Below are positions 1,167 through 50,204 of a DNA stretch of 64,000 nucleotides, in pieces. The DNA lies in NCBI GenBank assembly GCA_000091205.1, contig AP006499.2. One strand, 5' to 3'. A program made the translations under genes and the position numbers. The number at the start of each line of letters is the position of its first letter. The stretch's first letter is position 1. The notes under the pieces were generated by a model, which did not search any database, had not been told where the DNA came from, and saw nothing but the letters and a program-made list of their open reading frames with translations. The stretch comes from Cyanidioschyzon merolae (Eukaryota).

Positions 1167-2219
1167 GAGTCACCGGCGGAGCCGCTCATCCCTGGTGGTA
1201 TTTCCTGCGCAAACACTTTCCAGGAAATCATCTGGGAACGTGATTCAGGTCGGTGTCACGCAACATTTTTCAGATGTCTTTTCGCAGGATAGACAGAGTT
1301 GCGGCTCGCTGTTGCCACGACTATCGATAGGGATGGTGCTGAACACCTGGTAAACATCTCCTCGAAACAGGAGTGTTGTTCCGAAGCCACAAGAATGCGC
1401 CGCCGCCGAGCGCCAAAACTCGAACAGCGCACCTCTCCTCGTGATCCAATACAGGCTCAAATTTTGGGGAAAGATGCAGTATGCACGAGAAAACGGCATA
1501 CGCATGCTTGGACTAGATGTTTAAACGGGAAAGCGCGAGGGCCTGCCACACGCGACGTTTTTGAGCGCCACACCGCACGCTCTAATGGCAACACCCCGAA
1601 TATGGCAAAGCAACATGCGCGAAACTATGGCGCTGGACCCGACAGCTACAATGGCGAACAGCTGACTCAGACCTTTGCACTGTACGTTCCGACCTGTGCA
1701 TCGCCGCAGCTACGCAAAAGCTTCCGCTTCTGTTCCGAAACTGTGATCACAGGTCTTGCAGTGCTGCCGATCGCGAAACGCATAGCAGGCTGCGAGTCGA
1801 GGGGCAAGGTACCAGAGGCTGCCCTTCCCGGGCAGCACCAGGCCTCACACACACGGACGAGGGTGAGGTTTCCGTATCGGGCGCGTACAAGAGGCAAGCG
1901 CTTCGCCTGGGCCGTACAGCGTAGAGCCTACGGAGCCACTTGTGTCCCGGTTCTGTGGCGAGTCAGAAGCAGTCGTTTTGGCTGTGAACCCGCGCTGCTG
2001 GGCACTGCGAAGCGTCGAGTGACGCGCACTTCGAACGCCGCGGGTACTCTCCAGGGTGCAGGCGGGCGCTTGTTTTCAATACCTACCGACCGTTCGGAAC
2101 AGGAGCGTAGACACGACGACCAAGTGATCGCTCCCAGTCGGCCAGACGGCTACCAAAGTTTGGCTGCGAACGGCACCTGCTCACAGTACTAGCAGCGCAG
2201 GGGTAGCGACACCCGTGTC

Positions 2220-4844
2220 ATGAACCTGTTCGCAGACCCGCCTTTAACTGCATTCGTGAAGGCGCTTCGTTCGCACCAGCACGAGGAGTTGTCTTTTGTG
2301 CAAAAGCAGCTTGAGCTGCTTCGAAGCGAGTGCGAGGACCGCGATCCGGAAAAGAAAGCCTGGGCCTTGCTGAAGCTGACTCACCTGAACCAGCACCTAC
2401 TAGCAGGCGACCTATCGTTCACCGCTTTTCCTATCGTGGAAACAGCCACTCGGTCTGTTCTATGGCAAAAACAGGTCGGATTGCTTGCTGCGAGTCTGCT
2501 CTTCCATTCTCAGACTCCGGAGACACTGCTACTCGCGAATCAATTGAGAAAAGATCTTCACAGTGGCAACCGCAACGAACAGGCGCTTGCGCTGACAGGG
2601 TTTGCGGGTTTCGCCTCCGCGGACCTCGCTGAGGCTTTGTGGCCCGACGTTGCAGCGCTGTTCACGAGCGCTCGTCCGTACCTGCGTAAGCGAGCAGTGG
2701 TCGCCTTCCATCGCAGCGTTCGTCAGTGCCCAGAGGTGCTGCCAGCGTGCTGGCCTCGCTTTGTCAACCTCCTGCAGGACGCCGACCCTTCCGTGGTCTG
2801 CGCATCAGTCACCGTTGCACTCGAAGAGGTGCATACGTATCCAGAACTGTTTATACAAGTGATTCCCCGTTTTTATGAAATCGCCAGCCAGGGCGGTAGC
2901 AATTGGTTGCTCATCAAAGTCCTGATGGTTCTCGACGCTCTGTGTGCACATGAACCGCGTCTACCAAAGAAACTCGCATCTTTGGTGACAAGCATGATAG
3001 AGGCAACCCAGGCCAAGTCGTTGGTGTTCGAATGTTGCCGAGTCGCATGTCGTCGCTTGGCCGATGACGGCCATTTGCTCTGTGTTGCCATTGCTCGTCT
3101 AATTGCGTTTGTTGAGGGTACCGATCAGAACCTTCGATACTTGGCGCTGAAAGTACTCCGCAATGTTGTCGAGTACCGGCCATCGATCATTTCGCAGAAA
3201 CAGTTGCAAGGCGTTCTCAACGAGTTACAGAACAACGACATCCTGGTGCGGCTTGCAGCGCTAGAATTGCTTTCGAGCAGAGTGCATACTGCCGATGACT
3301 TACGATGCCTGGCTCAGAGCATGGAGCGGATGTCGCTGTTAGAGCCCGCACCGGGGCGGGCCCCGAACCGGGACACATCCGAGGAGCTGCGATTTCGCTC
3401 GATGTTGTTCAGTGAGCTGTGGCGATGCATTCGAAGGGTGTTTCCGGATGGATCCACTGATCTGGCAGAGGCAGATGCAGCGTGGTTGCTTGTGTCCATC
3501 GTTCGCCCGGCGCTTGTTCGGGCATCACAACTCGATGAGAAAAACGTGGAGCGGTTTGCGGTGTTGCTTTGGAAGCTTGTTCAATTACATGAATCGCTAC
3601 GCGGATCTGCAGCGGCTGTGTGTCGTCAGGTTCTCGACCGCTGCCTCTCGGAATCACACGATTGGATCCGGTACTACGGCGCTATTCGAGTTTGTGTTTG
3701 GATACTGGGCACCAGTCTTGAAGGTGTGAACGACTCGTCTCGTGCCGCCAATGACCTGGAACGACTCACGGGACTGTTCCAGCTTTTCGAATGCGTACGC
3801 ACGGGCGACGAGGAATTGGACAGTTTCGCAGCACTCCAGACGACGGTGCTGCGAACATTGCGCTTTTGCTGTGAGCATTTGCAGGCTGACTTTTCCTTGC
3901 AAGTCAGAGAGCGCCTCCAAAGAATCGTTCTATTGAGTCCAAGCGCCTTTGAGGAGCACTGGCGCCTCCTGGGCATCCAGCGAGACGTCCAACGCCGAGC
4001 GGGAGAGATCACTCGTCGCAGCGCCCCGCACCCCGGGGCACTCCAAGCGCTTTTGCGTTCGCTGCCCGCTCTCTCGTCACACGAACTATCCGAGTGTTGG
4101 GCTGATCCGCACGACTTGCCGCCACCGACACCGACACCAGCGATACGTCGACCACGAAAGCATTCGGAATCACAGGGCGCATCTCGGAGTGGCAACAATG
4201 CCGAGGCGGCGCTCCTGCTGCTCGACACCGTCGACGCCAATGATGTCGTACGTGCGCCGCTGACAGCACTGCCGTACAGGTCCGCTGCGCCCGCAAGTGC
4301 AACAAATGAATCCAGGGGCGAAAGAGACGCGAGCAGCGCGCATCCTCTGCAAGCGTCAGCGAGTGCGGGATTCACCACCGCATCTGATGTCTGGGCAGCA
4401 CATCGTTTCGCGAGTGCCCCCGACGACACCTCAACGGATGCCACAGGAATGGAGGCAGCGGGAGCAAGCGCCCGCTCCACCACCGAGCTCGAGCACCTCG
4501 CATTCTACCTCCGTGATGCACCGAGCGCGCACGCACACGCACGACACGCACACGCACCAGCAGCCTCCGTGCCCTCGAATCAGCAGGCTGCTGATGCGCT
4601 CTCGATCGGCGCCAGTCTGCAGGGCAATGCGTGCACCAGGCATGATGCGATGCAGGGCGCACGCATCGCAGGTACCAGCGATGCCCCGGATGATGCCCTG
4701 TTGATTGACTTTTGTGCACCGTATGCAGCAATCGACGGTGGTGATGCTCCTGCAGGTGATGATGCACCATCTACGACCGGGGCTGACAACTTGGGACCGG
4801 GTCGGTGTGTTGCGACCCCGGAGCATACCCAAGCAGCAGTGTGA
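2220..4844 (+). CDS. AP3D1: AP-3 complex subunit delta (adaptin large subunit); C-terminal low-complexity His/Ala-rich tail
   Basis: N-terminal half aligns with adaptin N-domain motifs: 'NQLRKDL', 'ALTGFAGF..ADLAE', 'RPYLRKRAV', 'SNWLLIKVLMVLDAL..EPRLPKKL', 'KSLVFEC', 'TDQNLRYLAL'. These match the AP-3 delta family. Confidence 0.7.
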   Translation: MNLFADPPLTAFVKALRSHQHEELSFVQKQLELLRSECEDRDPEKKAWALLKLTHLNQHLLAGDLSFTAFPIVETATRSVLWQKQVGLLAASLLFHSQTPETLLLANQLRKDLHSGNRNEQALALTGFAGFASADLAEALWPDVAALFTSARPYLRKRAVVAFHRSVRQCPEVLPACWPRFVNLLQDADPSVVCASVTVALEEVHTYPELFIQVIPRFYEIASQGGSNWLLIKVLMVLDALCAHEPRLPKKLASLVTSMIEATQAKSLVFECCRVACRRLADDGHLLCVAIARLIAFVEGTDQNLRYLALKVLRNVVEYRPSIISQKQLQGVLNELQNNDILVRLAALELLSSRVHTADDLRCLAQSMERMSLLEPAPGRAPNRDTSEELRFRSMLFSELWRCIRRVFPDGSTDLAEADAAWLLVSIVRPALVRASQLDEKNVERFAVLLWKLVQLHESLRGSAAAVCRQVLDRCLSESHDWIRYYGAIRVCVWILGTSLEGVNDSSRAANDLERLTGLFQLFECVRTGDEELDSFAALQTTVLRTLRFCCEHLQADFSLQVRERLQRIVLLSPSAFEEHWRLLGIQRDVQRRAGEITRRSAPHPGALQALLRSLPALSSHELSECWADPHDLPPPTPTPAIRRPRKHSESQGASRSGNNAEAALLLLDTVDANDVVRAPLTALPYRSAAPASATNESRGERDASSAHPLQASASAGFTTASDVWAAHRFASAPDDTSTDATGMEAAGASARSTTELEHLAFYLRDAPSAHAHARHAHAPAASVPSNQQAADALSIGASLQGNACTRHDAMQGARIAGTSDAPDDALLIDFCAPYAAIDGGDAPAGDDAPSTTGADNLGPGRCVATPEHTQAAV

Positions 4845-5825
4845 AGCGAGCTGCAGGCCGGACGTTCACACGGCAGTTTATGGGAAGCATGTGCTCGGCA
4901 TCCTGGATCATAGCAGACACGAGCGTCGACGCTGCAACAGGGACGTCTTGCTATTGCTATTGCTGTTGCTGGTGTTGGTGTTGTGGTGCGCTGACGTGCG
5001 TCTCGCACCAGTCCAGCATCGCGGAGGCCATTGGCCGGTGCAGAGCGCGCGCTGGGGTGAGGATCAGTCGGCAGCGGACGCAAGGTTACGGACGCGAATG
5101 CACGGGGCTCGTGCGGATTCACTCCAGAGTCTGGGTGCTTGCTGTTCATGGCTGTCGGGCCTGGATGTGTCTGGTATGGGGCTTGCGTCGCAGTTTGCGG
5201 CCGCGGCGACAGCTACAATTGATGACACGAGTGCGTGGATCATCGGCAGACGTGGCTGCTCCATCTGTCACGGTGCGCTGCCACGTGTGCACTGACCGGC
5301 CTTTCGACACACGGACGATCCATGGAAAATGAAAGCGGAGTAGCGAAGTGGACACGGATGCGCTCGAGTGCCTGCAACAGGCGGTAAGGAAGCGGCTGGC
5401 GATGTGCGAACGCTCCCACTGGGCGGCCGTCGGGCGACCCGGGGCTGGTCCATGAGTAGCTACCGCTTCGGGGGTCTACTTGTCATGACGGACACGCCAG
5501 CACAGTGGAAGCGAGGCTGCTTCGTGTAACGCAGAGCGTCCGGACTGCGCCTCCAGGCGGAGCGGCGAGGCCGTCTTTGTCGTCGTCGTCGTCGTCGCTG
5601 CTGCTGCTGCTACTGCTGGTACTCGCTGTGAAGCAGGCGGGTGCTAGCGATCGTCAGGCGTTCATCAATACGAAGCTCGAGGGCGGCGGATGACGTGCTC
5701 GCCGTAAAATCATCTGCTGTAGCAAGTTTGTCAAGCACCTAGTATAGACCCGTGCGTGTTCCGCGTCTTACGCACCGTGGAACAGCCACCAGTGCGGTGC
5801 GCTCGCTGCCCAGCGCGTTTGCAAC

Positions 5826-9689: not shown

Positions 9690-9767
9690 CGCCTCAACAC
9701 ATCAGGGGCGCTCGCCGTCGCATGAATCGTCAGACGCCGTGGACATGCGCGAGCCGTACGATGGACG

Positions 9768-10545
9768 CCTCGCTCGCCCGGAATGCCGATCAGCATCGCG
9801 CAGTCGAGAATCCCTGCTCCATCGCAACGCTCCGTTGATCCGGCGTTCAGGAGCGCCTCGCTCGCCCGGAATGCCGATCAGCATCGCGCAGTCGAGGATC
9901 CCTGCTCCATCGCAACGCTCCGTTGATCCGGCGTTCAGGAGCGCCTCGCTCGCCCGGAATGCCGATCAGCATCGCGCAGTCGAGAATCCCTGCTCCATCG
10001 CAACGCTCCGTTGATCCGGCGTTCAGGAGCGCCTCGCTCGCCCGGAATGCCGATCAGCATCGCGCAGTCGAGAATCCCTGCTCCATCGCAACGCTCCGTT
10101 GATCCGGCGTTCAGGAGCGCCTCGCTCGCCCGGAATGCCGATCAGCATCGCGCAGTCGAGGATCCCTGCTCCATCGCAACGCTCCGTTGATCCGGCGTTC
10201 AGGAGCGCCTCGCTCGCCCGGAATGCCGATCAGCATCGCGCAGTCGAGAATCCCTGCTCCATCGCAACGCTCCGTTGATCCGGCGTTCAGGAGCGCCTCG
10301 CTCGCCCGGAATGCCGATCAGCATCGCGCAGTCGAGGATCCCTGCTCCATCGCAACGCTCCGTTGATCCGGCGTTCAGGAGCGCCTCGCTCGCCCGGAAT
10401 GCCGATCAGCATCGCGCAATCGAGAATCCCTGCTCCATCGCAACGCTCCGTTGATCCGGCGTTCAGGAGCGCCTCGCTCGCCCGGAATGCCGATCAGCAT
10501 CGCGCAGTCGAGGATCCCTGCTCCATCGCAACGCTCCGTTGATCG
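9768..10545. repeat. Tandem array, 88-nt unit x ~8.8, immediately upstream (5') of GALT
   Basis: Unit 'cctcgctcgcccggaatgccgatcagcatcgcgcagtcgag[a/g]atccctgctccatcgcaacgctccgttgatccggcgttcaggagcg' recurs every 88 nt from 9768. Copies alternate an A/G variant. Confidence 0.9.
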
Positions 10546-12204: not shown

Positions 12205-12293
12205 TTTTTTTTCATTGAGAAAACGTTTACTTTGGCCAGCGTTCGCCGATCATGCGCATTGTTCTTTTCTTACCTTTTTTTCTCTTTTTTTCC
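12205..12293. repeat. Copy of ~85-bp T-run-bounded dispersed element (paralog of 40431-40512)
   Basis: About 90% identity to 40431-40512 over 'ttttttttcattga.aaaacgtttac..ggccagcgttc.ccgat.atgcgcatt.ttcttttcttac.ttttttt'. Near-identical 20-nt direct repeats 'tcgag.tcgagtgtgtggg' sit at 12187-12206 and 12485-12504. Confidence 0.6.
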
Positions 12294-12512
12294 AGTGCGC
12301 GGTAATGTATCTATCAACCCCCCACTCCCAAGTTACATTACCTGCACTTCTTCTCGGATATTCTGGTCGTTTCGTACGTCCAATCGTGTGCCTAGTGCCT
12401 GCCGAACGCGACAGCAATAGCGCCTATAGCGCCGGTACGGTCGCTGCACGGAGACAGAACGGCGTTGCTGTACCACACAAAGGGCGCCGGCTCGAGGTCG
12501 AGTGTGTGGGTG

Positions 12513-15699: not shown

Positions 15700-17259
15700 T
15701 CAGCGCGAACTTTTCGGGTGATAAGGGCGGCGCGAGGACGGCGGCGGTGGCGGCGGTAGTACCGGTACCCTCGCCGCTTGCGTCAGGTCCTGCATCCGAT
15801 CCTCATCTGTCGAGTTGTCTTCGGATGCCGCAGAGGAAATACTATACTCCATGTCAGAGGCGGATGACGCGCGAACTTGGGCCGACGACTCCACCAGAAT
15901 ACCGTCACGATCGACCGGAACATTACAGGCCTCGGTGTCCGACTTCCGCTTGTCCGTCCATGGCAACGGGCTCGTGAACCGGCTCAGCTCGGGATCAGTG
16001 CGGGCGAGATCCATCAGAGAAGACGAGCCCTGCTCGGTAATGGTGGCGGGAGCGATGTCAGGCGACACGCGTGGCGTCAGCACAGCGCTTCGATGACGTG
16101 GGCTTGCGACCTCGGGACTGAGAGGCTGTTGGGTATGTTTCCCGGAAGACAAGTGCTCCGCGGCGAACTCACCGTCGACTTCGGTACGCTCCTGGCCTTC
16201 GCAAAGTCCTGGATGCCCGCGCTCTCCATATGGCGGCTGCTTTGGGCGTCCCGGGATGCCAAGCTGCCCCTGCGCTGCAGTTGGACCCGATGCCAGATCG
16301 GCATCTACACTGGAGCGCGCGCTCTTGACCCCTGTACCATAAGGGGTCTCATCGGAAACAGACCAGCTGGGCGGCTCTATTGGACGTTGTTGCTGTGCAT
16401 TGAGTCGGAGTCTTGTGGAGAGCATTTGCCAGGCGACACGGGCGTCATCGCATGCTCGCAGCACCCAGTGGTGCAGCTTGGATAGCGTCGTCACTGCCGT
16501 GTACATTCCGCCCGCAAGTTGGCGGAGCGCAAGCAATCGCTCATTTTTCACATCGTAGACAACACGGAGACGAGCATGGCAAGCGTTTTCCTCCGCCTGC
16601 GTGGGGTCCAGCACGCAGCATGTCTCTTGAGAGCCTCGATGCTCATCGAAAAACAGAGCATACTCCAGGATCACAGGGTATACTTGCAGCTGCAGCGGGA
16701 CTGGCGGCCGCTCCCTCGGACTGAATAGTCGAACCCGTTCATCGCCATACCCGTGCCGCTCGATGGTAAAGTCTGGACGGCGAAAACGTTGTAGCGAACC
16801 GAGCGCAGCCAGTGACGCGTAAAAGAGCCCGCTACCATCCAGACTTTCGACACAGACTTGCACGGTAACCTGGAACGCGTATTTGCCGGCAACTATGCAG
16901 AGCGACTCGGGGTCAATACATCGAGACTCACGAAGGATGCGCTCTAGAAACACAGCCTCCTCTGAGAAGCTAACAGCGTCGCTTTGTTCGAGCAGCGTTC
17001 GCTCTGAGGCACCCGGCGAGATTCCGTAGACGACGCGGATCCATCCTTCGGTGGGTCGGTGCGGCGGCGGTGCAACCACTCGACAGGTTGTGGTTGCAAA
17101 CGTGATCGCACTCGAGCCGGCGAACACGAGGACGCCGCTCTCGCCTACAAGCTGGAAACGAAGGCGCCGGGCCTCTTCGGGTCGGCGACCATCAACGCGG
17201 AGCGGCAGACTCTGTAGAACGAACAGGAGCTCGTTGCTCGAATAGGGCTCATCTCGCAT
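15700..17259 (-). CDS. RRP45: Exosome complex component RRP45 (EXOSC9), RNase PH-like with C-terminal extension
   Basis: 'RVDGRRPEEARRLRF', and 'LERILRESRCIDPESLCIVAGKYAFQVTVQV...LQRFRRPDFTI...ERPPVPLQL' closely paralleling EXOSC9 'LERCLRNSKCIDTESLCVVAGEKVWQIRV...FRRPDV...ERDPVPLSI'. Confidence 0.8.
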   Translation of the reverse strand: MRDEPYSSNELLFVLQSLPLRVDGRRPEEARRLRFQLVGESGVLVFAGSSAITFATTTCRVVAPPPHRPTEGWIRVVYGISPGASERTLLEQSDAVSFSEEAVFLERILRESRCIDPESLCIVAGKYAFQVTVQVCVESLDGSGLFYASLAALGSLQRFRRPDFTIERHGYGDERVRLFSPRERPPVPLQLQVYPVILEYALFFDEHRGSQETCCVLDPTQAEENACHARLRVVYDVKNERLLALRQLAGGMYTAVTTLSKLHHWVLRACDDARVAWQMLSTRLRLNAQQQRPIEPPSWSVSDETPYGTGVKSARSSVDADLASGPTAAQGQLGIPGRPKQPPYGERGHPGLCEGQERTEVDGEFAAEHLSSGKHTQQPLSPEVASPRHRSAVLTPRVSPDIAPATITEQGSSSLMDLARTDPELSRFTSPLPWTDKRKSDTEACNVPVDRDGILVESSAQVRASSASDMEYSISSAASEDNSTDEDRMQDLTQAARVPVLPPPPPPSSRRPYHPKSSR

Positions 17260-17829
17260 AGAGTACGCTTTCTTCCGAAAGTGTTGGAAACGGGGTCAGC
17301 ACCCCGTCAGACCAGGTGTCCGTCGACTCGTCGGAATCTTGAATGCTGCTGCGCTGCGCTGCTCGACGACGGGGTAGACGCCCAAGCTCTGCAAGGCATT
17401 TGTAAAAGGCGTGCTCAAACGTACTGAGACAGTCGTTTCATCCCAGTTTCCCCTGTGTGACTGTATCAGAATCTAATTCTCGTTATATACGAGACCTAGG
17501 ATACCACATCCTCCATTTTGCATCAAGACACATCGGTCTCGAAGGATGGTGTGGTGTTTTTTGTCACTGAGCTGTGATGTTTGTGTTCCGTCTTACGACA
17601 AAACGGGGCAAGTCGCTGATTCGCTCTGATGCTGATCCTCAACTGCTCCGGATTGATGTGGCACTTGTTGTCATCGCGCTTCCCTTTGATGCCTGGGCTG
17701 GGAGCGTCTTCGACGAATCTAGCACTCTCGTAGCGCAACACATAGTGGATCCGAGATAAACACACGACCTGCTTTCTTTTTCTTTCGTTTCTTTATTGGT
17801 AATGACCCTCGTCGTCATCATTTCGTTCA

Positions 17830-20560
17830 AATTCGTGAGGCGACTTGCGCAACAAGAATACTCTGTCGACGCCCGGCATTCATAGCTATCCACCACATGC
17901 ACATTCCGCAATTCCCCGCACTACTGTTTGGTGGTTTCTTCCTGCACCGAACGTTGGACAAGAGCTCGGATGCTTGGCTCGCGCATCCCGGTCTCCGAAC
18001 CAGATGGCTGTATCTTGGCCACCTGGCACCAGCATGGGTTGCAGATCCCATGGATTGCATCCTGTTCGAATATGGGGCGGACGGCACCTCAGTCGCTCGT
18101 ACCCGGAACGAGCTCTGCGCTTTAGTCATTCAGGAAGAACGCTTAAATGCGCTCGCAGATACGTTTTGTAAGCCAAGTCCGTCGTCTCGCATCTGGTGAG
18201 ACGAGCAGTCACATGCTCTGTCTGTTGAATCTTGTTTTTTGCGTGTTCCTCGTGCTGTAAACGAGCCTCGCCTCGAGGCCGTATCTTCTGCTTCGGTCAA
18301 CGGCACGTATCTGACCCTGGGCTCGAGTACGCGACGGCGACCAGGTCCAGAATACCTGGCTCTTGGCCCACGAGTCTTTCGTAATTTTTCAGAGGCGGGA
18401 GGCTTTCTTCGTCTGCCATTTGCCCCGAGATATTCGGCGATGCGCTCAGTTGAAAGCTAGAACCGAACCCATCCGAGAGAAAATGGAAACTGAATGCACC
18501 GTTTCTGGTTTCGGCTGCTTAGATATTAAGGTTTTCGCGTTAAACCTTCCTCTTCATTTCCTCACTCGCTTTCCTTTCATTCTCAGCATGCCGTGGCGTC
18601 GTAGAATGCCCACGACACTCAAGTAAGTTAAAGGAACGTAACCAGTGATGAAGCCACGCTTTGTAGACAAGAGAGTGTACGTCGTGGGGCGTAGTGTACC
18701 TCTTCTGTCTTGTGCATCCTATTTTCGCCGGGAATTTGAAGCATTTACACACTTTTCTACCAATTCGTTTCACAGCGAAAGAGGCCAACGCTTCTTGGAA
18801 GAATGTCTCAGAGACATGCCTTGGGGAATGCATCTCTTCACGTCTTCCACGATCTCTGCCGCCAAGTTCAGCTTCGAATTACTTGTTCGGTCACTCGGAC
18901 GGAAGCGAACCTCGAGACTTTCGAACGATCCCGCGGGTACGACACAGGAAATCTCTTTTTCTCTCTCCCGAGGCTCTCTTTATTCATTTTCCATACTCCA
19001 GCTTGATCGAATCCTATCTAGGAACGACCACCCGTTTGTGGCCGCTCCGCTCGCCCGAGCTTCGGCCTTCTTGCATCCGCGTCCTCTCAGTGTCTGTTCG
19101 AAGCGAGATAAACGATCATGTGAACAGCGTCCGTCATCGCAAGCGAGAATCCCCAGAATGTGCAAGATCGCAAGGGCGTAGGGTTCCCTTCCCAGTCAGT
19201 TGCCTAAGGTAACTTTAAAACGGGAACGAGACACTTTATATTTCTTGGCGATGATGGTCTTGCAGGGAAGCAACCAGCTACATCTCGGTGAAGCGAACTT
19301 CCCCTTGGGTCACTCGCTCTCGTTCGTCATCCTCTCTCTCCCCAGCTCGAGTCAGACGGTACATTTTTTCTGTGCACCACAGGATGTGTTACACTGGTCC
19401 CAACAGCATAATGTCTTTCTTCACGTGGAAACATACCTTGAATCTCTAATTTATTCGAGAAAACCGAAGACTCGATACGTCATTTTGTTGCTCCAGAGGA
19501 GCTGAACCAGCTTTGCACAAGCGCTGGTGTATGGACGCTGCACTCGGTAACGACGAAATGGAACACACCTGGTCGCAGTGTTGCGATTTCTTTTCCGGGT
19601 TTTTTCAATTGTCCCGCCTTCTTATTCGAAACCCAGAAATAGGAACTTTCGGATTGACACGAACAATACGTATACATGGTTGTCGACTCGGAGAGGCCCC
19701 TTCGATTCGTAGCCATTGGAATTCCGTAGCTCCCGGGAATCACGATGATTCGCGACGCTCTCGAACAAGAATTCGTAAAATAACCTATACCATGATGCAA
19801 TGCATCCGTGCATGCCTCGAGTCATCTTGTATTTGCTAACATGCAGCATGTTCGAATAACGCATGCTTCATGTTTCGATCTTTGTGTCTCGAGGCAACTC
19901 GTCGGCGCTAGAATACGTGCCGCTGGATTGACGACACAAAAAAAAACGCGACATCGTTCATTGACGACTTGTTCGCAAGCTCGTGCTGAAAGTTTGCTGA
20001 GCAATCAAAGTCTAATAATCGATTCCATTCGATTGAAAAATCCTTCTCGGTTTACAATCATCGATGAAACGACATTCCACGTCATCTTGATATCTTGTAT
20101 GATGTATGGTTCCAGATGCTTCCGTCTTCGCATTTTGTACGGAAAACCGTCTTCGACTCGGACTTGAGTTGCCATGGCGATCGCTTCCGCTGGCGAGGTC
20201 GTCATTGCTCTGTATGATGCTTGTGGAACGGATCGAAAGATCTCTGTTTGATCGCCAACCTGGATTTTTCTTCCAGTACTTGTTTCATTGTGGACCAGAT
20301 CTCGTTCCACTAGCCCTCTATCGAATAGAACAGTGTACGCGTCACGGGTATCGCCCAGACGAAGCCCCTGGTTATAGAGTACGGCATCGAACGCGGAAGA
20401 GGAGGGCAGCATCAAGCCGATCCTCGTGCATTCGTCAAAGGAATGTACCAAGCGATAAAACAAGCGTTTACGCGCCACACGGCGACGCCGTGAGCAGGAG
20501 AAAGTGTACTAGACTCCTAGGAACATCTCACCACAGCCAGGTGTCACCAATACGAGGCGC
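17830..20560 (-). pseudogene. Degenerate TnpB/Fanzor-like copy 2 (multiple frameshifts/stops)
   Basis: Minus-strand ORF pieces are collinear with copy 1. 20005-20478 'FDAVLYNQGLRLGDTRD..LVERDLVHNETSTGRKIQVGDQTE..KMTWNVVSSMIVNREG' matches '[58 protein letters not shown]'. 19480-19800 'IIVIPGSYGIPMAT' matches RuvC-I '[14 protein letters not shown]'. 18540-18833 'QKRYTTPHDVH' matches '[10 protein letters not shown]'. Confidence 0.4.
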
Positions 20561-20912
20561 GCACGGAGGCTCGACATCACTTTGTTGAAAATGACAAGCA
20601 GAGCGTAGATCACAACTTCCATATGTGCAAGAGGTAGGTTGACAACAACCGCAAACAGCGAAATCTGGACTTGGACGCTACGATCAATATCTTTCGAACG
20701 TTGCCAACGGAGCTGTAGTGAACGATGAGACCAGCGTTTTGAAAGCTCGAGATATGAGAGAGCATTATGGGGAAAAGTCGATGAAAAAGCGAGTATTGGT
20801 TGCTGCTGATGACAGCGGAAATAGATCCAAAGTTGAGCATGTACTCCCGAGTTAGCAGAATGCACCTGTTCCATTTTTATATTAACATTGGCGTAGAATG
20901 GATCAGGTTCAT

Positions 20913-21791
20913 TCAAATTGCTCGATTGGGATCCTGACTGCGCGCAGAAGCTGCACTTTGTTCGCTGGTGAACGCCCTGCCAGAGGCTGGTTTCCGAGGC
21001 ACACCCCGCGTGGCCTCCGTCAGCCAGCCACCACCCGAGTCCTGGCCGTGACCGCTCGAAACCGCACTCGAGTTCATCGTTCGCCGTGAAGATGCGTCAG
21101 TGGTCGGCTCGATGTACTGCGCTGCGGGAGCCGAAACTCCACCCTTCTCCAGTCCGTCTGCCTGGTCGGTGTCCTCAGTGCCGGACGCTTGGCGTTTGCC
21201 CCAGAACCAGCCGCGCCCCGTTTTCGTGGACCCGGACGATGCTGATGCGGCCGCTGTGGTGTGCGTTGGGCCCGCATCCGCCGCAAACTCATGATTCTTG
21301 CCAAAGAAGACGTTGAGGAAACTGAAAGAGACGATGACGGCCCCAGATACAATTAGGAGCACTTTGCTCACGGTATCGCTGTCGCTAACACCAGCCGTGA
21401 TAGCCAGCGAACCGGTGAACATCTCGAACAAGCCACGTCCCCAGCGCCCTTTCAAGAACCCGAACGGGCGGAAAAAGAAACGAGGCCGACCGATTTCACC
21501 AAATATAATCAGCAAACCGAAAAACGCGACATACAGCATCACAATGAAGCCCAGCGGGTTGCGCAGCGCCTGTGCTGCTGTCGTGAAAAGCGTCACGAGC
21601 CCGAAAACTCCGGTGAAAACGAGAAAACCCCCCGAAACCACTGTGCACCACCGGAGCACTGTGCTTACCTTCCGCAGATCAGCCTCAAAGCAAATGCAGT
21701 TCTTCATCGAAACGAGCCCAAAACGTGCGATGAACGACGCCGACCGTGTACAGCAGTGGCGAACCGTACGCCCTGGACAGACCGTGTCCAA
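20913..21791 (-). CDS. Multi-pass membrane protein (possibly COPI-associated/TVP15-like); true start may be M at 21709
   Basis: Hydrophobic helices 'GGFLVFTGVFGLVTLFTTAAQ', 'GFIVMLYVAFFGLLIIFGEIG', 'LLIVSGAVIVSFSFLNVFF'. GC-rich like host genes. Lies directly between the two Fanzor-like copies. Confidence 0.35.
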   Translation of the reverse strand: MDTVCPGRTVRHCCTRSASFIARFGLVSMKNCICFEADLRKVSTVLRWCTVVSGGFLVFTGVFGLVTLFTTAAQALRNPLGFIVMLYVAFFGLLIIFGEIGRPRFFFRPFGFLKGRWGRGLFEMFTGSLAITAGVSDSDTVSKVLLIVSGAVIVSFSFLNVFFGKNHEFAADAGPTHTTAAASASSGSTKTGRGWFWGKRQASGTEDTDQADGLEKGGVSAPAAQYIEPTTDASSRRTMNSSAVSSGHGQDSGGGWLTEATRGVPRKPASGRAFTSEQSAASARSQDPNRAI

Positions 21792-24265
21792 CTGACGTGT
21801 AGACGCCTCCCCGTCTTTTCGGACCGGGCATCCACCACTGCTTCCAACTTCTTCTCATATAATTCCACTTTTAGAGGTTGTCCAATAAAGTTCTCTCTTG
21901 TCCAATCTGGAGGTCTTTCCTCCAGCACCGCACATTTCCTTATATGGATAGCGGCATTGAAGTCTCGGTTCACATACTCCATCCGTTTTTTGTTGCCATT
22001 GATTGTACGAACAAGCGCAAGGAGTCCACGAACGTTCGCCCTTCTTTCCATTTGCTCCCCCGTCATCGGTCCGTGCTTTGCTATTTCCTCAGGGCTCCGT
22101 TGGCACTTTTCTATCTCCACTCTCTGAAGTGTACACCCCAGTTCCTGGTGTGTATACGATGTTCGAAACTCATCTACAGGTATCGTAACAAAACGCCTTG
22201 CGCACGCCTTGTACACCCTCGTCGTTGGAGCTGGCGTAGTTCCTTTTTGGGTCATCCATCGTCCTGCCCCGTACGCTACAACCAGCCTTTGACTTTCATC
22301 CTCCTTCAGGACGCTCAACTCATTGAAAAATTCGCGAACGCCCGCTGGTTCCCACAATACAAATTCATTCGGAAACGAGCCCACCGGGGCTTGGTATACT
22401 CCTCCCACAGCGCATCCCAATGGGCAACACGAACTTCCATGAATTTCCGAAAAGCTTCAAAGTCCGCTCCACGGCTCGTCATCTCGCTCAGAGCTTCCAG
22501 GTGATCCTTCATTCCATGTCTCGACTTTCTTCCTCGCATTCATTATACCGGATTCTCGATGGTATCTTGCTCTCGAGAACCTCAAAAGACGCATGTCTTT
22601 CTGACGAAAGTTGCCCTCAGTACCATCTTCCGCACGCTTCGGTGCTGTGATGGTGATGATATTTGTGTTTCCGGGGTCCGCGCCAACAACAAAGTCGTTA
22701 TCCTGCACTTTCTGTGTCACAGGACCTGCCTTCTTGGTTTCTTCATGCTTCTCCGCGTAAACGACATGCACGTTATCCTCCACCTCCTGCGTCGCAGGAT
22801 CCACCTCCTTCTTTTCTTCATCCTTCGCCGCGTAAACGACAAGGTCGTTATCCTCCACCTCCTGCATCGCAGGACCAGCCTCCTCCCTTTCTTCATGCTT
22901 CGTCGTGTCAACGACAAGGTCGTTATCTTGCACCCTCTGCGTCGCAGGATCCGCCTCCTTCTCATCTCCATCCTTCGCCACGTCAACGACATGCACGTTA
23001 TCCTCCACCTCCTGCGTCGCAGGACCAGCCTCCTCCTTTTCTTCATCCTTCGTCACGGGCGCAGCTGAGGGAGGGACTGGCCGATCTGCCTTCAACCGCC
23101 GATAGTGTACACACAAGGCTACTCCATCGGTTTCGATCATTCCAGTGAATATCTTTTGTTTGCCGACTTTGAGCCGTTTGAAATCGAAGATATTCTTCCA
23201 GTACGTCTCCCGGTTTTCGCCGGTGAACTCTGTCCTCCTTACATCGAACTCCGGACTGATCTCCTTCATGATGCCGTAAAGGATTCTGGAATCGATGCTC
23301 ACAAAATGTGACTTGATGTTGCACATTGGAACCACGTTGAAGCGCTTCCCCATTAGGACAGCCTCCCGTCTCTCACACGCTTCATTTTTTTCCTCACTCA
23401 GCTTCGTTTCTGCCTTGCGTTCGAGCTCTCAGTCCAGAAACACGAAATATCGCAGGACGAGGCGATAGTATCTTTTCTTATCTTTTTTCATCTCTGATAT
23501 CTTGTCTGTTGGATTCACGAGCCCCAAGACTGCACGGTGCTCTTGTATAGCCGCACGGATTCCAGAAGCTTCATTCGTGAACTAGTTTGACGCTTTCTTG
23601 TCAACGATTTCGACCTCATCTTCACGCTTGCCATCTTTCGTGATGCCATTGATCATCGCCCATGTTCCTTTGCGAGATAGGCCCGGGTAGAGTGCAAACA
23701 CGGCGCGTATCATGAAACGTTCGAGGTTCACTGTCAAATGGTTCTTCAGGTTCGTGATGTACTTCATCGCCCCGTATATGTAAAAATTCGAGTCGCCCTT
23801 GTATCGAGTACCCTCGAAGCGGATTTTGGCGAAGTTTTCGTGGAGGTGCACTAGCACATTTTCCCTCCGCGTTTTCTCTCCACCAAGCATCAGGTGTCGA
23901 ATAAACGTCTTGTCGAAAAACTCGTCCGGAATCTCGACCGTTTCCATATCCGTCACGTCGCGATACATCTCCCTTGCCAAATGCATCAGTCCTGACGACG
24001 CCTTGACAACAATCTTGGAGTACGAGTCGACACGTTTTTTGATAGCGTCTCGCAACTTTTCCCTGTAGGGATCCTTGATATGTCCAAGACGAAAGGTTTT
24101 CACCACCTTCTCGTCGTACAGTCGTCTCTCGTGACGCCTTCGACGTAGGGCCTCCCCCTTTCGGTTCTTCTTCTCTCCCTGTTCTTCTGGACTCGGCACT
24201 GTTTTTTGTTTTTTTCTAGCAGCCGGCGACCATGGCCCTCCAGGATCGTGGACTTGCTTTTTCAT
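21704..24265 (-). CDS. TnpB/Fanzor-like RuvC nuclease (near-intact copy 1); ORF segments 24265-23582, 23353-22457, (22539-22315), 22420-21704 in different frames, probably joined by introns
   Basis: N-terminal basic NLS-like 'ARKKQKT...[17 protein letters not shown]'. RuvC-I '[18 protein letters not shown]' (D at about 22676-22678). Zn-ribbon-like '[35 protein letters not shown]' (HCCH). RuvC-III '[12 protein letters not shown]' (D at about 21962-21964). Confidence 0.55.
22676..23050. repeat. In-frame 75-nt x5 tandem duplication inside the Fanzor-like CDS, ending in the RuvC-I motif
   Basis: Minus-strand protein units '[25 protein letters not shown] / [25 protein letters not shown] / [25 protein letters not shown] / [25 protein letters not shown] / [25 protein letters not shown]'. 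Confidence 0.85.
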
Positions 24266-24582
24266 AACTTTCCTTTTATTAGTTTTTTTTTGAAAAAGAA
24301 CCCTCTTTGAACCCTTGTGTTATATACTGCGAAAAAACACTTGACTAGACTTGTTTGAGGTTTGAAGCAAAAACGAACTGAAAGACTGTACTTTGCCACG
24401 TCTTTAACGCAAGTACAGCTTGCACATTAGAGCAGCACGCTATTGATCAGGATCGCGTTTCCCTTCAACGGCGACAAGTGCGTCGCATCAGTTGACTGCC
24501 CGATCTCCCAGATGCGCTCAGTGAGCGCGCTGGGCGCATCGCCCCGTTAAAAACGCGCAAAGCACAGTGCCTCGACACAAGT

Positions 24583-25979
24583 CTACCCGTCGCGCACCGA
24601 GGCTAGGCGCAAGGCCGCTGGCGACGCCTTGGCTGGCCTGGTGTCGCTGCGCTCCGGAGACATCGACTCAGGTACCGAGTGTGGTGCCTGCGCAGACGCC
24701 GAGCGCCCCGTTACGAATAGAGAACGCACCGGTGAGCGTTCAAAGACCCCAGCAGACCGACAAGCATCCGCAAGTAGTCGACCGGCAGGTGTAAATACCC
24801 CAACGATCCAGCGCGTTGTTGTGGCAGCAGCAGTATCAGCGTCTCGTTCGGCTAACGTTGGTTGTAGAGACGCCAGCGGCACATACGGTTCAACACGAAT
24901 CACGCCCGTGCTTCCATACAGGTCGAACAGACCAAAGGAAGTTGTGCTAGTGTGCAGGACGTTACTAGGTCGAGTGCAGCGTCCCGCCCCGAGTTCGGTG
25001 GCGGCTCCAGCCACTCGGCCGGGAAAATACTGGCCAGCGAAAGCACTGCCTAAGCCACGAGCGCGACTGATGACCCAACGACCAAAACGCGCCTTTCTAA
25101 TAAAACGAGTTTGATCAGGCGCAACAAGTCCCGTCGAAGCCGCGTCACCAGCTGTTGGAGACTCGTGTCGCCAATGGCGTCGCGGTCCAGGCACGCTGGT
25201 AGTCGCTGCACTGGCACTGGTGTCGGTACCGGCAGTCGCTGCACTTCAGGGTCGCCCAACGCAGCCGCTTCCTCTTCATCCAGCGTCGTAACCAAGGTCC
25301 CGAAGCAGTCTACCTGCCCAAAGCTATGTTTCGCAAAGTAACTGGCAACCACCGGCTCAAGTCGACTCGCTAGAAGCGCATACAGCGGCCAACGACTCAA
25401 CAGTAGCACAGACTTTTGGACGAGACCTCGGGCTGTTGCAACAGCCTCCTCCTCAGCGCTAGCGATGCGACTGCAGTCCATCTGATGCTATCGGTAACAA
25501 GCTACACCGTACAACGTGTCGACAGTGACGCCCTGCCGAACCGTGAGGTACACCGTGTCGTGCTCGCGTCCATGCGCACCGTCGGGAAGCGCTCGCACGG
25601 CCACCTCGCGAAGCCAGTCGTTGTCAAGGTTCTGCGCTGAAGCTCCGGAGCGATCTTCTGTCTGGTTCACTTGCCAGTTCACCGACAACTCATCCGCTAA
25701 CTCAGCACACTCGACTTGGTACTCGTGCTTGGCGTGAAACCTGAACGCAAACCCGCGTTCACCGAACGGATCCGCAAAGCGCACGGCCGGTCGATCGTCG
25801 AGACGCCGCCCTCCTGCCCCATGCGATCTAGGCAGCGGGTATCGCTCTGTGCACAGAAGCGCGTTAAAACGGGTAGGCGTCGACTTCAGTGCAGCGGTGC
25901 AGCGAGGTATCCGTCTGAGTTGACTGAAAGCAGTTCGTGTCATGGAGACACGGTCGGCGGTCAGCGGGAAGGAAACCAC
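24583..25979 (-). CDS. Hypothetical protein split over three frames (25979-25488, 25481-25050, 25194-24583); possible introns; weak longin/DENN-like feel
   Basis: Consecutive minus-strand ORFs. No confident motif. Confidence 0.2.
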
Positions 25980-27329: not shown

Positions 27330-28139
27330 TTTGAATCTATCGTAAGCATCCGCACTGAACATGCTCAGATGCTTGACGAGTGGCGTCCATGTGCCCGGTG
27401 ATTTGGGATGTAGTTTGTACCTCCATTGCCGCCTAGTCAACTGAGGTCCGTAGTTCGCAGGGATGCGATTCGCGAACGCTGACGTTGCGGATACATTCGA
27501 ACGCGATCGACCCGCGCTCATCTGCAGTTGCAGCGTTTTACGAAATGGTCCCTGGTGAGCCTCGTGCAAGCGCAGTCCGCAAATCCCGAGTTTGCGGACA
27601 CCCTGAAACATCATCGCTGCGCGTAAAACGCACCAGCTTTGCAAATAGCGCTGAGCCGTGTATCGCGTCAGGGTCTGAGCCATGTCAGCGGAAAAGGCAG
27701 GCCTGTGCGATGATGTCGGATATCGTGGATTTGCTGAGACAGTTGTCGCACAGGTACCCGCTGGCATGGAATCACGGCCGCTAGCCCCGTGCCAGATGAA
27801 AATGGAACGCTGAACTGCTCGCTCTGTTCCTGAGCTTCGTCGTTGCTTCTGAAGATTTCATAGATATACAGGATCGATTTTCGAGGTCCAGCGACAGGGG
27901 TTTACGGATTCATGCGTTGATGGAGGATCCTCGGTTGTAGCTTAGGAGTGGCCTCTTCAACGCTTTGCTCCTGAAATTCGATATGTCTCGGGAATCGAAA
28001 TGATTCCTGATGCCCTAGAACAAAGTTTCATAAAATACCCACCATCATGATAAAATTTACAAGTCGAAGCTTCGATTCGACTGCTTTCCTTACGTGTAGC
28101 ATGCTCAGATCACGCTTGCTCCAAGTTTTCGGCCTTTAT

Positions 28140-28830
28140 GATTCAGGGCCAATCGCGGGCACAGCACTGCGCGCCGCAGCATCGATGACCACGAAAAAAT
28201 ACATCGATCTCCTCTCTTGACGGCTTGTCCGGGTGCTCATGCAGAGAGTTCACTGAATCCGCCGGGGGTAAATACCGGATACCATTCGAAAAGAAAATTC
28301 GTTTGTCTTTGTGACGATCGATTGTACGGGATTCGAAAGAGACAGCACGATACTTCTGACGGGATATGCTCCAAAGGGTCACCGTCTCTGCTGGAGCTGT
28401 TGTGAGAGGTCTTACGCTCGGAGTTCGTTCATCGTCGAGATCGCTTCCAGTGGCGATTCCGTCATCGTTTTCCACATAGGGAGCGTAGACGAATCGGGAT
28501 TTCTCGACTTTATTCTCCAGCCGAGAAATTTATCCTTACAGTACTTGCTTCATCATGGACAAGATCGCGTTCCAGAAATTCTCTATCGAATGCGACAGCC
28601 TGCGCTTGGGCGCGCAGCGTACTCGCCAAGGGCTTCGCCCGGAAGATGCCCCCGGTTATAGGGTATTGCGCCAGGTGCGGACGCTGAGGCATGCAGCGGG
28701 TGAGCCTTCTGTTCCTGGCAAAGGCATGCACACAGCACTGAAGCAAGCGTCAACACAGGGCAGTGCTCTGACAAGGAGGATGGAGTGTAGTGTGCATACG
28801 GGAACGCCTAACCAAAGCCATGTGTCATCG
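28140..28830 (-). pseudogene. Degenerate fragment of TnpB/Fanzor-like gene (copy B; N-terminal ~230 aa equivalent, intron-less at the copy-1 intron site)
   Basis: 28510-28746(-) '...FLERDLVHDEASTVRINFSAGE' aligns with copy-1 '...[18 protein letters not shown]'. 28143-28475(-) 'IDRHKDKRIFFSNGIRYLPP...SREEIDVFFRGH' aligns with copy-1 'IVDKK|[12 protein letters not shown]...[11 protein letters not shown]'. B reads straight through where copy 1 has the 228-nt gap at 23354-23581. Confidence 0.4.
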
Positions 28831-29716
28831 TTTCGATTGGCGCACCCAGGCTCTGTACAACGACAATGAACATGGCAAGCGAAGCGCAGATCGGTACCTT
28901 TCCCTGTTCATGAACTACGTTGACAGCAGACGGAAGCTGCGAATTCGGAAGTTGAACGCTGCAGGCAACATCCCTTGAATGCTGATAGCGGCGCTTGAGC
29001 GACAAACGAGACTAGTGTGCTTTAAGACGGAGGCGAGCGAGGAAATGAAAGCAGACTTGGCGGGAAAAAGCCCGCAATGGCTGGTGTTGGTGACACTTGG
29101 ACGAGGCCCGAGCGCCCACATGTAAGCCGGAGCTGGTGCTCACATTCCATTCTGTTCTGGCATCGGCACAGCCGCGACCAATACGTTCCGTTTAATCGTC
29201 GAGTCCCATGTAGTGCATGCCTTCTCGCCAAAACGATTCGTCGTGACGCAACGCCATGCTGCAGGATGGATCATGCGTAATCGAGCACATCCTGGTGCCA
29301 TACAGCCGCGTCATTTCCATAGATTCGACGACGCGGTATCGCCATAGCGACACTACGGCAGTCGGCTGCACGATGTACACGGGAGGCGCCGCGTTCGCAT
29401 CGCCCATCCGTCGAATGCCGCTCACCCCGCAAAATCGTGCGTTTCCAGACGCTCACAGCAAGTAGGACGCGGTCATGTATGGCCATGTGTCAAGCCACGT
29501 GAATCGGAAGCAGGAACTGTGCCACTACACGATTCGAAGCCGAATCCTTGCATGGGGATAAAGACTGCGCCTCGCCTTTAGCTCCAAAAGTGTGGCGTTC
29601 GGTCTGTTCGGCCGCCGTCTCTACTTGCATCTCTGGCGGATGCTCGAATGCACCAGCGAAATTTGACGTAGCTGCCTAGTCTTCAGATAAACGCTCCTGC
29701 AGCGTGCATCTTGCGC

Positions 29717-41129: not shown

Positions 41130-41450
41130 GCTTAAGGATTCGTTCGTAGTTTTAGTTTTCTCGACTTGATCTCCATCCTGGAATTTCGTTCCAATTCCTG
41201 CCTCATCATGGACAACACTCCGATGCACAAATCCGCTAGCGAGTAGAACAGCGTCTGCTTCTATGTGCAGCGGACAGGGTGCTCGCTTCGGGATTGTCGG
41301 GACGAAGCTCTTGATCGTTGTGTACGACAACTGGCGCTGCAAAACGAAGGCGAGCATCAAGTGTATCCCTGTGTACCCGTCACGCGCATGTGGCGAGCGA
41401 AGAAGCAAGCATTCACCCGCCACAGGGCGGCGCTCGGAGGACACATTGTG
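41130..41450 (-). pseudogene. Short degenerate fragment of TnpB/Fanzor-like gene (copy C)
   Basis: 40728-41444(-) 'ADAVLLASGFVHRSVVHDEAGIGTKFQDGDQVEKT' aligns with copy-2 'FDAVLYNQG..LVHNETSTGRKIQVGDQTE' and copy-1 '[23 protein letters not shown]'. Nucleotide similarity to 20270-20520 and 28530-28800. Confidence 0.35.
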
Positions 41451-50178: not shown

Positions 50179-50204
50179 AGTTGCCTTAGCAACCCGAACA
50201 TCGA

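Follow-up and report, generated by a model that had tools for sequence, protein, structure and literature searches.

A decayed Mariner/IS630-type element with a Fanzor1 remnant, probably a deletion derivative, beside a COPI-associated gene of Cyanidioschyzon merolae

Background

Mariner-type Fanzor1 elements have been described as PUl-1 and PUl-4 of Pythium ultimum and as PGv-1 (Bao and Jurka 2013, PMC3627910). These are about 3.4-3.8 kb in length, end in inverted repeats of roughly 24-33 bp, show TA duplications and carry a Mariner-like transposase together with Fanzor1, and the motif given for Fanzor1 and TnpB proteins is D-X(125-275)-[TS][TS]-x-x-C4 Zn finger-X(5-50)-RD (PMC3627910). For C. 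merolae the same study lists CMe-1 alone and describes CMe-1A as an element of ~3.2 kb with a 734-aa Fanzor and without transposase, inverted repeats or target duplications, while a P-MITE survey recorded no MITEs in this alga (PMC3964958).

The DNA analysed here, referred to as the window, is a stretch of 64,000 nucleotides from chromosome 17 of C. merolae 10D. A sequence-only reading had claimed that positions 17830-20560 are a degenerate minus-strand copy of a neighboring Fanzor element (copy 1), arranged in tandem with it. The layout of PUl-1, PUl-4 and PGv-1 is exactly that of intact parent-type elements L036/L037 and L025/L026 described below, whereas the copy found in the window, element A, is very probably a 1.35-kb deletion derivative, fully decayed, densely represented and resident in a red alga. 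Element A and CMe-1A share a genome and both carry Fanzor1-type RuvC-II, Zn-ribbon and RuvC-III motifs, but there is no nucleotide similarity between them, and inverted repeats are present in element A and lacking in CMe-1A.

Results and discussion

Gene content and base composition of the locus

The features surrounding element A were as follows.

17260-19540, no strand: spacer without assigned content, 51% GC
20913-21707, minus strand: host gene for a COPI-associated membrane protein (COPI_assoc), 264 aa
21730-24603, minus strand: copy 1, a pseudogenised CMe-1A Fanzor1 element

The host gene was identified through Pfam PF08507 (E 9.8e-10) and its coding sequence is also annotated at 264 aa in locus L001. 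A membrane gene had been expected between the two Fanzor-related regions and does lie there, although its coding sequence is 20913-21707 rather than 20913-21791. The stop of the copy-1 frame noted at 21704 is a TGA at 21704-21706, which overlaps the host start codon (21705-21707) as ATGA.

Copy 1 contains three in-frame stops and two frameshifts in this strain, and its extent was set by nhmmer against loci L006-L008. Relative to the L001-type strain, a divergence of 4.6% is restricted to copy 1, and either gene conversion or assembly chimerism may account for it. Its protein has thirty homologs, falls in Pfam DUF8286 and corresponds to CMe-1 as given in the supplement to PMC3627910. A 26-sequence CMe-1 family HMM (applied with --max to all six translated frames of the window) matched only copy 1 and, at 36958-37140, a fragment.

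The interval 17830-20560 is 50% GC and 19541-20893 is 47% GC against 58-60% in the flanking coding sequences, in agreement with the earlier remark that the region is AT-richer than its neighbors. No coding, RNA or repeat homology was detected in the spacer at 17260-19540, including no Pfam match in six frames and no match to the CMe-1A consensus over its first 630 nt, and the sole nhmmer match in 440 kb of related sequence was its own allele in L001. Nothing was detectable in 17830-19540 by six-frame Pfam or by nhmmer against related loci. Rfam gave no match within 17000-25000, neither tRNAs nor local repeats were found on scanning the interval, and megablast of 17400-20900 against a phage collection returned no match.

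Anatomy of element A

Element A was delimited by nhmmer, a family HMM and alignment of the terminal inverted repeats, and matched four other copies in the window with nhmmer E values of 1e-109 to 1e-41. Its parts were as follows.

19541-20893, plus strand: element A, decayed non-autonomous Mariner/IS630-type transposon with a Fanzor1 tail, 1353 bp
19541-19565, no strand: 5' terminal inverted repeat, CACTCGGTAACGACGAAATGGAAC..., flanked by TG and not TA
19796-20310, plus strand: IS630/Tc1-mariner transposase remnant (HTH and DDE_3 as far as the second catalytic Asp) with one frameshift
20057-20077, plus strand: first transposase Asp motif, IIDETTF
20287-20310, plus strand: second transposase Asp motif, IVDQISFH
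20329-20739, plus strand: remnant of the Fanzor1 C-terminal third, its frame interrupted by in-frame stops
20365-20385, plus strand: RuvC-II-like motif, PLVIEYG
20521-20634, plus strand: Zn-ribbon (TNB) remnant
20662-20691, plus strand: RuvC-III motif, NLDLDATINI
20868-20893, no strand: 3' terminal inverted repeat, GTTCCATTTTTATATTAACATTGGCG, followed by TA at 20894-20895

Copy A alone had no significant match in Pfam, and its annotation derives from the consensus of the family and from tblastn searches with proteins of the parents. The intact L040 transposase matched 19868-20215 on the plus strand (E 4.6e-6), while the only match in the window to the intact 770-aa L025 Fanzor was 20329-20739 on the plus strand (E 4.4e-11, residues 555-734). 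Plus-strand segments of copy A showed 54-73% identity to the family consensus protein, and the copy keeps EHLTTARC...HMC and NLDLDATINI but has stops and lost cysteines.

The Fanzor part lacks RuvC-I and everything else up to about residue 528, the similarity of the family to the intact Fanzor beginning at 529-555. The Asp upstream of the Fanzor part is a residue of the DDE_3 transposase, and element A does not contain a RuvC-I Asp with the full Fanzor1/TnpB motif. The Zn-ribbon (TNB, PF07282) followed by RuvC-III of the form RD-x-NAA-x-NI is present at the level of the family. The transposase is likewise an incomplete DDE/DDD enzyme, the third catalytic residue, which the parents have in their PPYSPWFNPIEN motif, being missing.

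A dispersed family and its intact relatives

Element A is one of five copies of a 1.35-kb family in the window, of which the other four were located as follows.

27784-29168, plus strand: copy B
41014-41838, plus strand: copy C, with a further internal deletion and both ends kept
60354-61736, minus strand: copy D
63297-64000, minus strand: copy E, cut by the window end

Four more copies occur in other Cyanidioschyzon loci and at least a dozen further sites were found in metagenomes. The copies are dispersed and about 60-65% identical in pairwise comparisons, and differences between them showed no codon-position bias. In the terminal repeat consensus the 5' end, CACCCGTGTCAGATTAAAATGGAAC, matches the 3' end at 22 of 25 positions, and the repeats are homologous to those of the intact L036 element. 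A TA flank was seen at three of the six recognisable 5' ends and four of the eight 3' ends (7/14), with most others one base off; such imperfect flanks are expected of old copies and fit them, without amounting to proof.

The family consensus matched Pfam DDE_3 over profile positions 3-100 of 146 (E 3.6e-6, 1.3 bits below the curated cut-off) and Cas12f1-like_TNB at 28.9 bits (cut-off 26.3), and its RuvC-III reads RNRDLNAAINI. Among NCBIfam models, an IS630 transposase was matched at 88-238 of 299 (E 2.3e-9) and guided_TnpB at 329-388 of 389 (E 1.6e-3). The consensus thus matches both bacterial IS630 transposases and TnpB, but at scores far below the 100-bit family cut-offs, and the family represents eukaryotic relatives in the form of partial remnants. 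Comparison of the family with the CMe-1 family by hhalign gave a probability of 95.4% (E 1.8e-8) and, in a second run, 90.9%, over 106-150 columns. Sequence searches of the PDB with the family profile and the intact parent Fanzor gave no meaningful match.

Intact parent-type elements of 3.6 kb were found in metagenomes, with a transposase, a 765-aa Fanzor1 and near-identical inverted repeats. Both termini of L036/L037 (23-49 and 3611-3637) consist of CAACCGTGAAAATTAAAATGGAACA adjoining TA, the transposase matches DDE_3 with E 4e-28 and the Fanzor gene lies downstream, and the same gene order occurs in L025/L026, L027 and L040. Between the Fanzor of an intact parent and a CMe-1-type protein, identity is only 24%. 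In all copies of the Cyanidioschyzon type the transposase match ends at or before residue 264 and the Fanzor match starts at or after residue 529.

Origin by internal deletion

Taking together the observed family membership, inverted repeats, domain content, intact parents and synteny (see below), we conclude that 19541-20893 is very probably a dead non-autonomous Tc1/mariner (IS630-like) DNA transposon and a deletion derivative of a Mariner-Fanzor1 parent. The existence of intact parents carrying transposase and Fanzor1 identifies the 1.35-kb family as an internal-deletion, non-autonomous and now decayed derivative. The ancestor would have been ~3.6 kb long with the order TA, 25-27-nt inverted repeat, HTH-DDE transposase (~320 aa), Fanzor1 (~765 aa), inverted repeat and TA. 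A single internal deletion of ~2.26 kb (the difference in length between the 3615-bp parent and the 1353-bp element) may have removed the transposase C-terminus with the third catalytic residue, the intergenic spacer and Fanzor residues 1 to about 528, and would have joined transposase residues ~1-257 to Fanzor residues ~529-746, the two parts being out of frame with each other in the consensus of the family. The derivative, with both inverted repeats, was probably mobilised in trans, through cut-and-paste transposition to TA sites, and would have multiplied in the Cyanidioschyzon lineage, after which its copies presumably decayed neutrally to about 60-65% pairwise identity and are now likely to be inactive. 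The family may descend from exactly the metagenomic parent lineage.

This history would resemble that of Ds/dSpm-like derivatives and MITE precursors, in which both termini are kept and coding capacity is lost by one internal deletion, with the 1.35-kb family presumably amplified in trans and copy C deleted further, although the family is longer than a typical MITE.

Could the joined transposase N-terminus and Fanzor C-terminus instead be a functional fusion protein under selection? Two metagenomic copies, P0068 and P0069, do cross the junction in one open frame; they do so in frames that differ from each other, however, and the two parts stand in different frames in the 9-copy consensus. Such a fusion would moreover lack both the third catalytic residue of the transposase and the RuvC-I of Fanzor, and none of about 40 copies proved to be intact, leaving this explanation very improbable.

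Coding strand of element A

One minus-strand frame over 19483-20916 is nearly open, with 3 stops in 478 codons compared with 15-19 stops in each of the other five frames, and short peptide motifs in this frame are repeated among the copies. These features would suit a family encoding an unknown protein on the minus strand of copy A, with the plus-strand matches being incidental, but in the other copies each frame of that strand is interrupted by 9-22 stops and the differences between copies show no third-position excess. The 478-aa conceptual protein had no homolog among 5.8 billion proteins, and Pfam gave no match on single minus-strand ORFs or on whole minus frames. The open frame is the exact codon-aligned antisense of the Fanzor frame, as illustrated by KDVDGSVQV, the antisense of which is the plus-strand Fanzor motif DLNAAINIL, and the plus-strand matches were significant in three independent libraries as well as against intact proteins. 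A minus-strand protein is therefore hardly credible, and we attribute the unusually open frame to codon-aligned antisense bias and chance, without proof.

The same open frame, together with the lower GC content of the interval, is what speaks for a degenerate minus-strand copy of the copy-1 Fanzor element in tandem with it, as in the sequence-only reading, and we regard that possibility as close to untenable. Collinear remnants of copy 1 had been claimed, yet no minus-strand similarity to copy 1 was found, the best blastn and tblastx matches having E values of 0.03-0.17 and not being collinear. Membership of the same family was contradicted by the CMe-1 HMM, the best score of which in 17260-20960 was -2.4 bits, on the plus strand and no better than in shuffled sequence, with no match in the minus frames, and by hhalign, in which the conceptual protein from the minus strand matched that family with a probability of 0.09% (E 0.6). 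All significant matches were on the plus strand. The search for shared termini yielded 25-nt inverted repeats in element A and no ends in common with copy 1, and CMe-1A has no such repeats (PMC3627910).

The proposed RuvC-I, 'IIVIPGSYGIPMAT' (19708-19749, minus strand), runs antisense to the 5' portion of element A, ahead of the point where transposase homology becomes recognisable, and neither this motif nor the Fanzor N-terminal region exists in element A, a truncated transposase standing in their place. The plus-strand coding of the relic places it inverted (convergent) and not in tandem with respect to copy 1. The limits of 17830-20560 also gave way to those of element A (19541-20893), within which only about 20329-20739 is Fanzor-derived. 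The earlier view that a degenerate Fanzor relic adjoins the host gene was therefore correct in substance and mistaken as to strand, extent, family and content.

Independent insertion on both sides of COPI_assoc

The COPI_assoc gene is closely hemmed in, as the 3' repeat of element A ends 17 nt before its stop codon and copy 1 lies 22 nt away on its 5' side. The Cyanidiococcus ortholog is 79% identical at the nucleotide level and syntenic, the gene order RRP45-like, COPI_assoc, E2 being kept, and the spacers around it are 738 and 725 bp in comparison with 3650 and 4368 bp here, the 738-bp spacer being the entire counterpart of the one to which 17260-19540 belongs. No copy of the element A family was found at the Cyanidiococcus locus.

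The syntenic gene with short Cyanidiococcus spacers argues for independent insertions and not for a composite element, in which the tightly bracketed gene would be a passenger; the latter can be set aside, as element A and CMe-1A are of different families with no common ends, the gene and both neighbors are syntenic in Cyanidiococcus without either element, and the other copies of each family stand singly. Of the two options offered previously, repeated insertion or a composite element, the first was thus borne out in the form of independent insertions into both spacers. Copy A would have inserted in the 3' spacer of COPI_assoc and the CMe-1A Fanzor1 element, independently, in the 5' spacer. 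As one of many such relics in the C. merolae genome, element A is an ordinary one.

Conclusions

In Fanzor and TnpB loci the guide (omega) RNA normally comes from the 3' end of the gene or from its downstream tail. The 1.35-kb derivative keeps both inverted repeats, on which a transposase would act, and the 3' Fanzor end with its downstream tail, which are exactly the portions that a Fanzor element served in trans would require, and it is conceivable, though unlikely, that the family was a 'guide-only' satellite that once expressed a guide RNA for the Fanzor1 of its parent or, in a weaker variant, that its relics now give a terminator or promoter to abutting host genes, e.g. COPI_assoc. If true, a guide-only satellite could explain why copies are so dense in a genome otherwise poor in transposons.

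The main value of this analysis is as a correction, since motifs read by eye on the wrong strand had given a plausible but wrong anatomy. Outside the window, the intact metagenomic elements with transposase and Fanzor1 could be candidates for studying Fanzor biology in a Mariner context. The usual picture of C. merolae is of a genome almost devoid of transposons and MITEs, and the 2013 survey credits it with one Fanzor1 family; it also holds what is very probably a dense and ancient family of Mariner-Fanzor1 deletion derivatives, with five copies in a 64-kb window.

Absence of a minus-strand copy of CMe-1A

A degenerate minus-strand Fanzor copy had been proposed from the sequence alone at 17830-20560, in tandem with copy 1, the pseudogenised CMe-1A Fanzor1 element on the minus strand. 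Comparison of 17200-20950 with 21650-24500 by blastn (word size 7) and tblastx gave no significant or collinear match. A CMe-1 family profile HMM (26 members, all filters off, six-frame translation of the whole window) identified copy 1 and, at 36958-37140, a small fragment, but nothing in 17260-20960, where the top score of a dedicated search, -2.4 bits (plus strand), did not exceed that of shuffled sequence. For the conceptual 478-aa protein of the minus strand, hhalign to the CMe-1 family gave a probability of 0.09% and no homolog was present among 5.8 billion proteins, while the three minus frames were without a Pfam match. Collinear minus-strand remnants of copy 1, described by the sequence-only reading as N-terminal, RuvC-I and Zn-ribbon regions, are ruled out by these nulls; the composition, the host gene and the degenerate frame that it reported are real.

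The minus frame of copy A (19483-20916) has 3 stops in 478 codons versus 15-19 in the other frames, and in the other copies of its repeat family each frame of the matching strand contains 9-22 stops. This open frame is the exact codon-aligned antisense of a Fanzor frame, the sense frames being broken. It was probably what drew attention to the region and probably reflects antisense codon bias and chance.

A repeat family with transposase and Fanzor parts

The interval 19529-20901 was identified by nhmmer as one copy of a dispersed repeat with four other copies in the window (E 1e-109 to 1e-41 against copy A) and four further copies in unrelated Cyanidioschyzon contigs.

Other family copies in the window (nhmmer)
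27772-29176, plus: copy B
41158-41825, plus: copy C, with a further internal deletion and both ends kept
60349-61721, minus: copy D
63342-window end, minus: copy E

Copies were pairwise identical at about 55-60% of positions, or marginally more, and their mismatches showed no codon-position bias. Members of the family end in terminal inverted repeats of 25 nt (5' consensus CACCCGTGTCAGATTAAAATGGAAC; 3' consensus, reverse complement, CATCCATGTCAGAATAAAATGGAAC; 22/25 match). TA was present at 3/6 recognisable 5' ends and 4/8 recognisable 3' ends, with most others one base off TA; copy A (19541-20893) has TG before its left end and TA after its right end.

A family consensus built from nine copies was decisive: a recurrent minus-strand peptide, KDVDGSVQV, becomes DLNAAINIL when read in antisense, and this is the signature by which RuvC-III of TnpB and Fanzor is recognised. 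Read in window-plus orientation, the family consensus encodes an N-terminal part (...SLFVAIDETVF...GSKFLDLFSSLDFPSSTRFIMDNIAFHKS) and, in another frame, a second part (...RALARAADSVIAEGIAQKKPMIVGYGTGRGNGG...VVDIWEHLTTAKCHRCEG...RNRDLNAAINILRLL). Matches included the IS630 transposase of NCBIfam (E 2.3e-9, profile 88-238 of 299), Pfam DDE_3 (E 3.6e-6, 27.3 bits, below the cut-off of 28.6) and HTH_33 (E 0.009), together with Pfam Cas12f1-like_TNB (E 1.3e-6, 28.9 bits, cut-off 26.3) and NCBIfam guided_TnpB (E 1.6e-3, profile 329-388 of 389). Alignment to the CMe-1 family by hhalign gave 95.4% for the consensus (E 1.8e-8, 150 columns, RuvC-II to RuvC-III) and 90.9% for the family profile. Segments of copy A were 54-73% identical to the consensus protein.

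Features of copy A
19541-19565: 5' inverted repeat
19796-20310, plus: transposase remnant, one frameshift
20057-20077, plus: first Asp motif, IIDETTF
20287-20310, plus: second Asp motif, IVDQISFH
20329-20739, plus: Fanzor tail with in-frame stops
20365-20385, plus: PLVIEYG
20521-20634, plus: Zn-ribbon remnant
20662-20691, plus: NLDLDATINI
20868-20893: 3' inverted repeat

A Fanzor-derived relic is therefore present as had been claimed, but on the other strand, in another transposon family, truncated and inverted. With sense plus for copy A and minus for copy 1, the two are convergent rather than in tandem.

Locus and host genes

Exact look-up of an E2 W enzyme (BAM81969) and the VASt-domain protein CMQ040C, both encoded in the window, placed it on chromosome 17 of strain 10D. 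Four metagenomic contigs match this locus at 97-99% identity, and the orthologous locus of Cyanidiococcus yangmingshanensis spans 20.6 kb. The gene order FOL3-like, RRP45-like, COPI_assoc, E2, kinase, VASt and PseudoU synthase is kept there, with coding identity of 68-81%, while the spacers around COPI_assoc, a COPI-associated membrane-protein gene (20913-21707, minus), are 738 bp and 725 bp versus 3650 bp and 4368 bp in the window. The proposed comparison with relatives found both elements in the L001 metagenomic strain (98% identical) and zero copies of the copy A family in the 20.6-kb Cyanidiococcus locus. Synteny and these short spacers without a family copy indicate that COPI_assoc occupies its ancestral position. 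Given this, and the origin of copy A from another transposon family, copy A is not part of a composite element carrying a passenger gene. Element A and CMe-1A were either inserted independently or lost in the sister genus.

The 3' repeat of element A lies 17 nt after the COPI_assoc stop codon and the CMe-1A 3' end 22 nt before its ATG, which is overlapped by the TGA of the copy-1 frame as ATGA. As the gene is bracketed by transposon ends (20893-20913 and 21707-21730), its promoter/5'UTR and 3'UTR/polyadenylation site must be within transposon-derived DNA.

Most of the originally proposed interval is covered by 17260-19540 (2.3 kb, 51% GC), which had no match in Pfam (every frame), Rfam or tRNA searches and no similarity within 440 kb of related sequence beyond its own allele. 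Since the entire orthologous Cyanidiococcus spacer is 738 bp, it is reasonable to guess at older insertions that can no longer be recognised.

A 143-aa ORF (25050-25481, minus) with a Pfam Avl9 match lies in the GC-rich stretch 24604-25941, which separates CMe-1A from the E2 gene. It is absent from the orthologous Cyanidiococcus spacer (600-725 bp) and may represent part of a gene, or a gene gained or lost in one lineage.

Copy 1 and other CMe-1A sequences

The copy-1 frame runs from 24265 to 21704 on the minus strand with three in-frame stops (TAG 23584, TGA 23431, TGA 22459); alignment to three other copies placed the element at about 21730-24603. The protein, for which 30 homologs were found (Pfam DUF8286, in one case PF07282 as well), matches CMe-1 Fanzor1 as printed in the supplement to Bao & Jurka 2013 (PMC3627910), where CMe-1A is described with about 150 copies, 3169 bp, no inverted repeats and about 80% identity to consensus; copy 1 is thus an element already known. 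About five units of a 75-bp tandem repeat (22677-23057, 79-84% identical) lie within its ORF just upstream of RuvC-I and encode repeated peptide units, whereas the published consensus protein contains only one of them.

The window copy has two compensating frameshifts when compared with the L001 allele, which is far more intact, with the TAG as its sole in-frame stop. Strain 10D and L001 differ at 4.56% of sites in copy 1 (21730-24603) and 2.6% in 24604-25941, but only 0-1.3% in the adjoining genes and spacers and in elements A and B. The raised divergence and the more intact allele suggest either that the CMe-1A copies, roughly 150 in number, have undergone ectopic gene conversion or that the assembly is chimeric.

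A relic of about 470 bp (36879-37352; nhmmer E 1.8e-14 and 7.8e-6; HMM fragment 36958-37140) is the window's true second CMe-1A-related copy, an internally deleted derivative joining a 3' part (equivalent to 21793-22040) to a 5' part (equivalent to 24168-24303). Fragments matching roughly the initial 250 nt of the 5' consensus, the part common to TE-N2_CMe, were located at 12216-12498, 55046-55278 and 63103-63352 (E 6e-30 to 9e-47), the last adjoining family copy E. A search with the 5' 630 bp of the consensus placed none of them upstream of copy 1, from which this 630-bp part therefore appears to be missing. Window self-comparison also revealed near-perfect tandem arrays at 620-1142, 9766-10544 and 49992-50179 (repeat periods near 109, 88 and 91 bp; units 93-99% identical to one another).

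Parent-type elements

A metagenome scan with the family consensus identified 48 loci, of which about 30 were further decayed two-part copies and others were intact. In L036/L037, an element of about 3.6 kb (L036 23-3637) has TA|CAACCGTGAAAATTAAAATGGAACA at each end and encodes a transposase of 326 aa (DDE_3 E 4e-28; HTH_33), which is complete and includes PPYSPWFNPIEN, with a Fanzor gene downstream on the same strand. The same order was found in L025/L026 (about 1300-4870), L027 and L040, and the intact 765-aa Fanzor1 of L026 (TNB E 1.7e-5) occurs on 40 metagenomic contigs. These appear to be intact autonomous Mariner/IS630-type elements in which the gene for a complete DDE_3 transposase precedes that for a 765-aa Fanzor1, and they carry inverted repeats almost identical to those of the C. 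merolae relics. The parent transposase matched 19868-20215 (plus) and copy B in the window, and the parent Fanzor had a single tblastn match (20329-20739, plus, E 4.4e-11, residues 555-734). The parent Fanzor, at only 24% identity to a CMe-1-type protein, is of a different Fanzor1 lineage.

Across all the Cyanidioschyzon-type copies, the transposase match never extends past residue 264, and no Fanzor match begins before residue 529. These common breakpoints point to one ancestral internal deletion, which would have removed about 2.26 kb (3615 minus 1353 bp). A selected transposase-Fanzor fusion protein is unlikely, since the halves are in different frames in the consensus and the two metagenomic ORFs crossing the junction are in different frames from each other. 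Element A belongs to the known kind of Mariner elements carrying Fanzor1 (PMC3627910) and is ordinary in mechanism.
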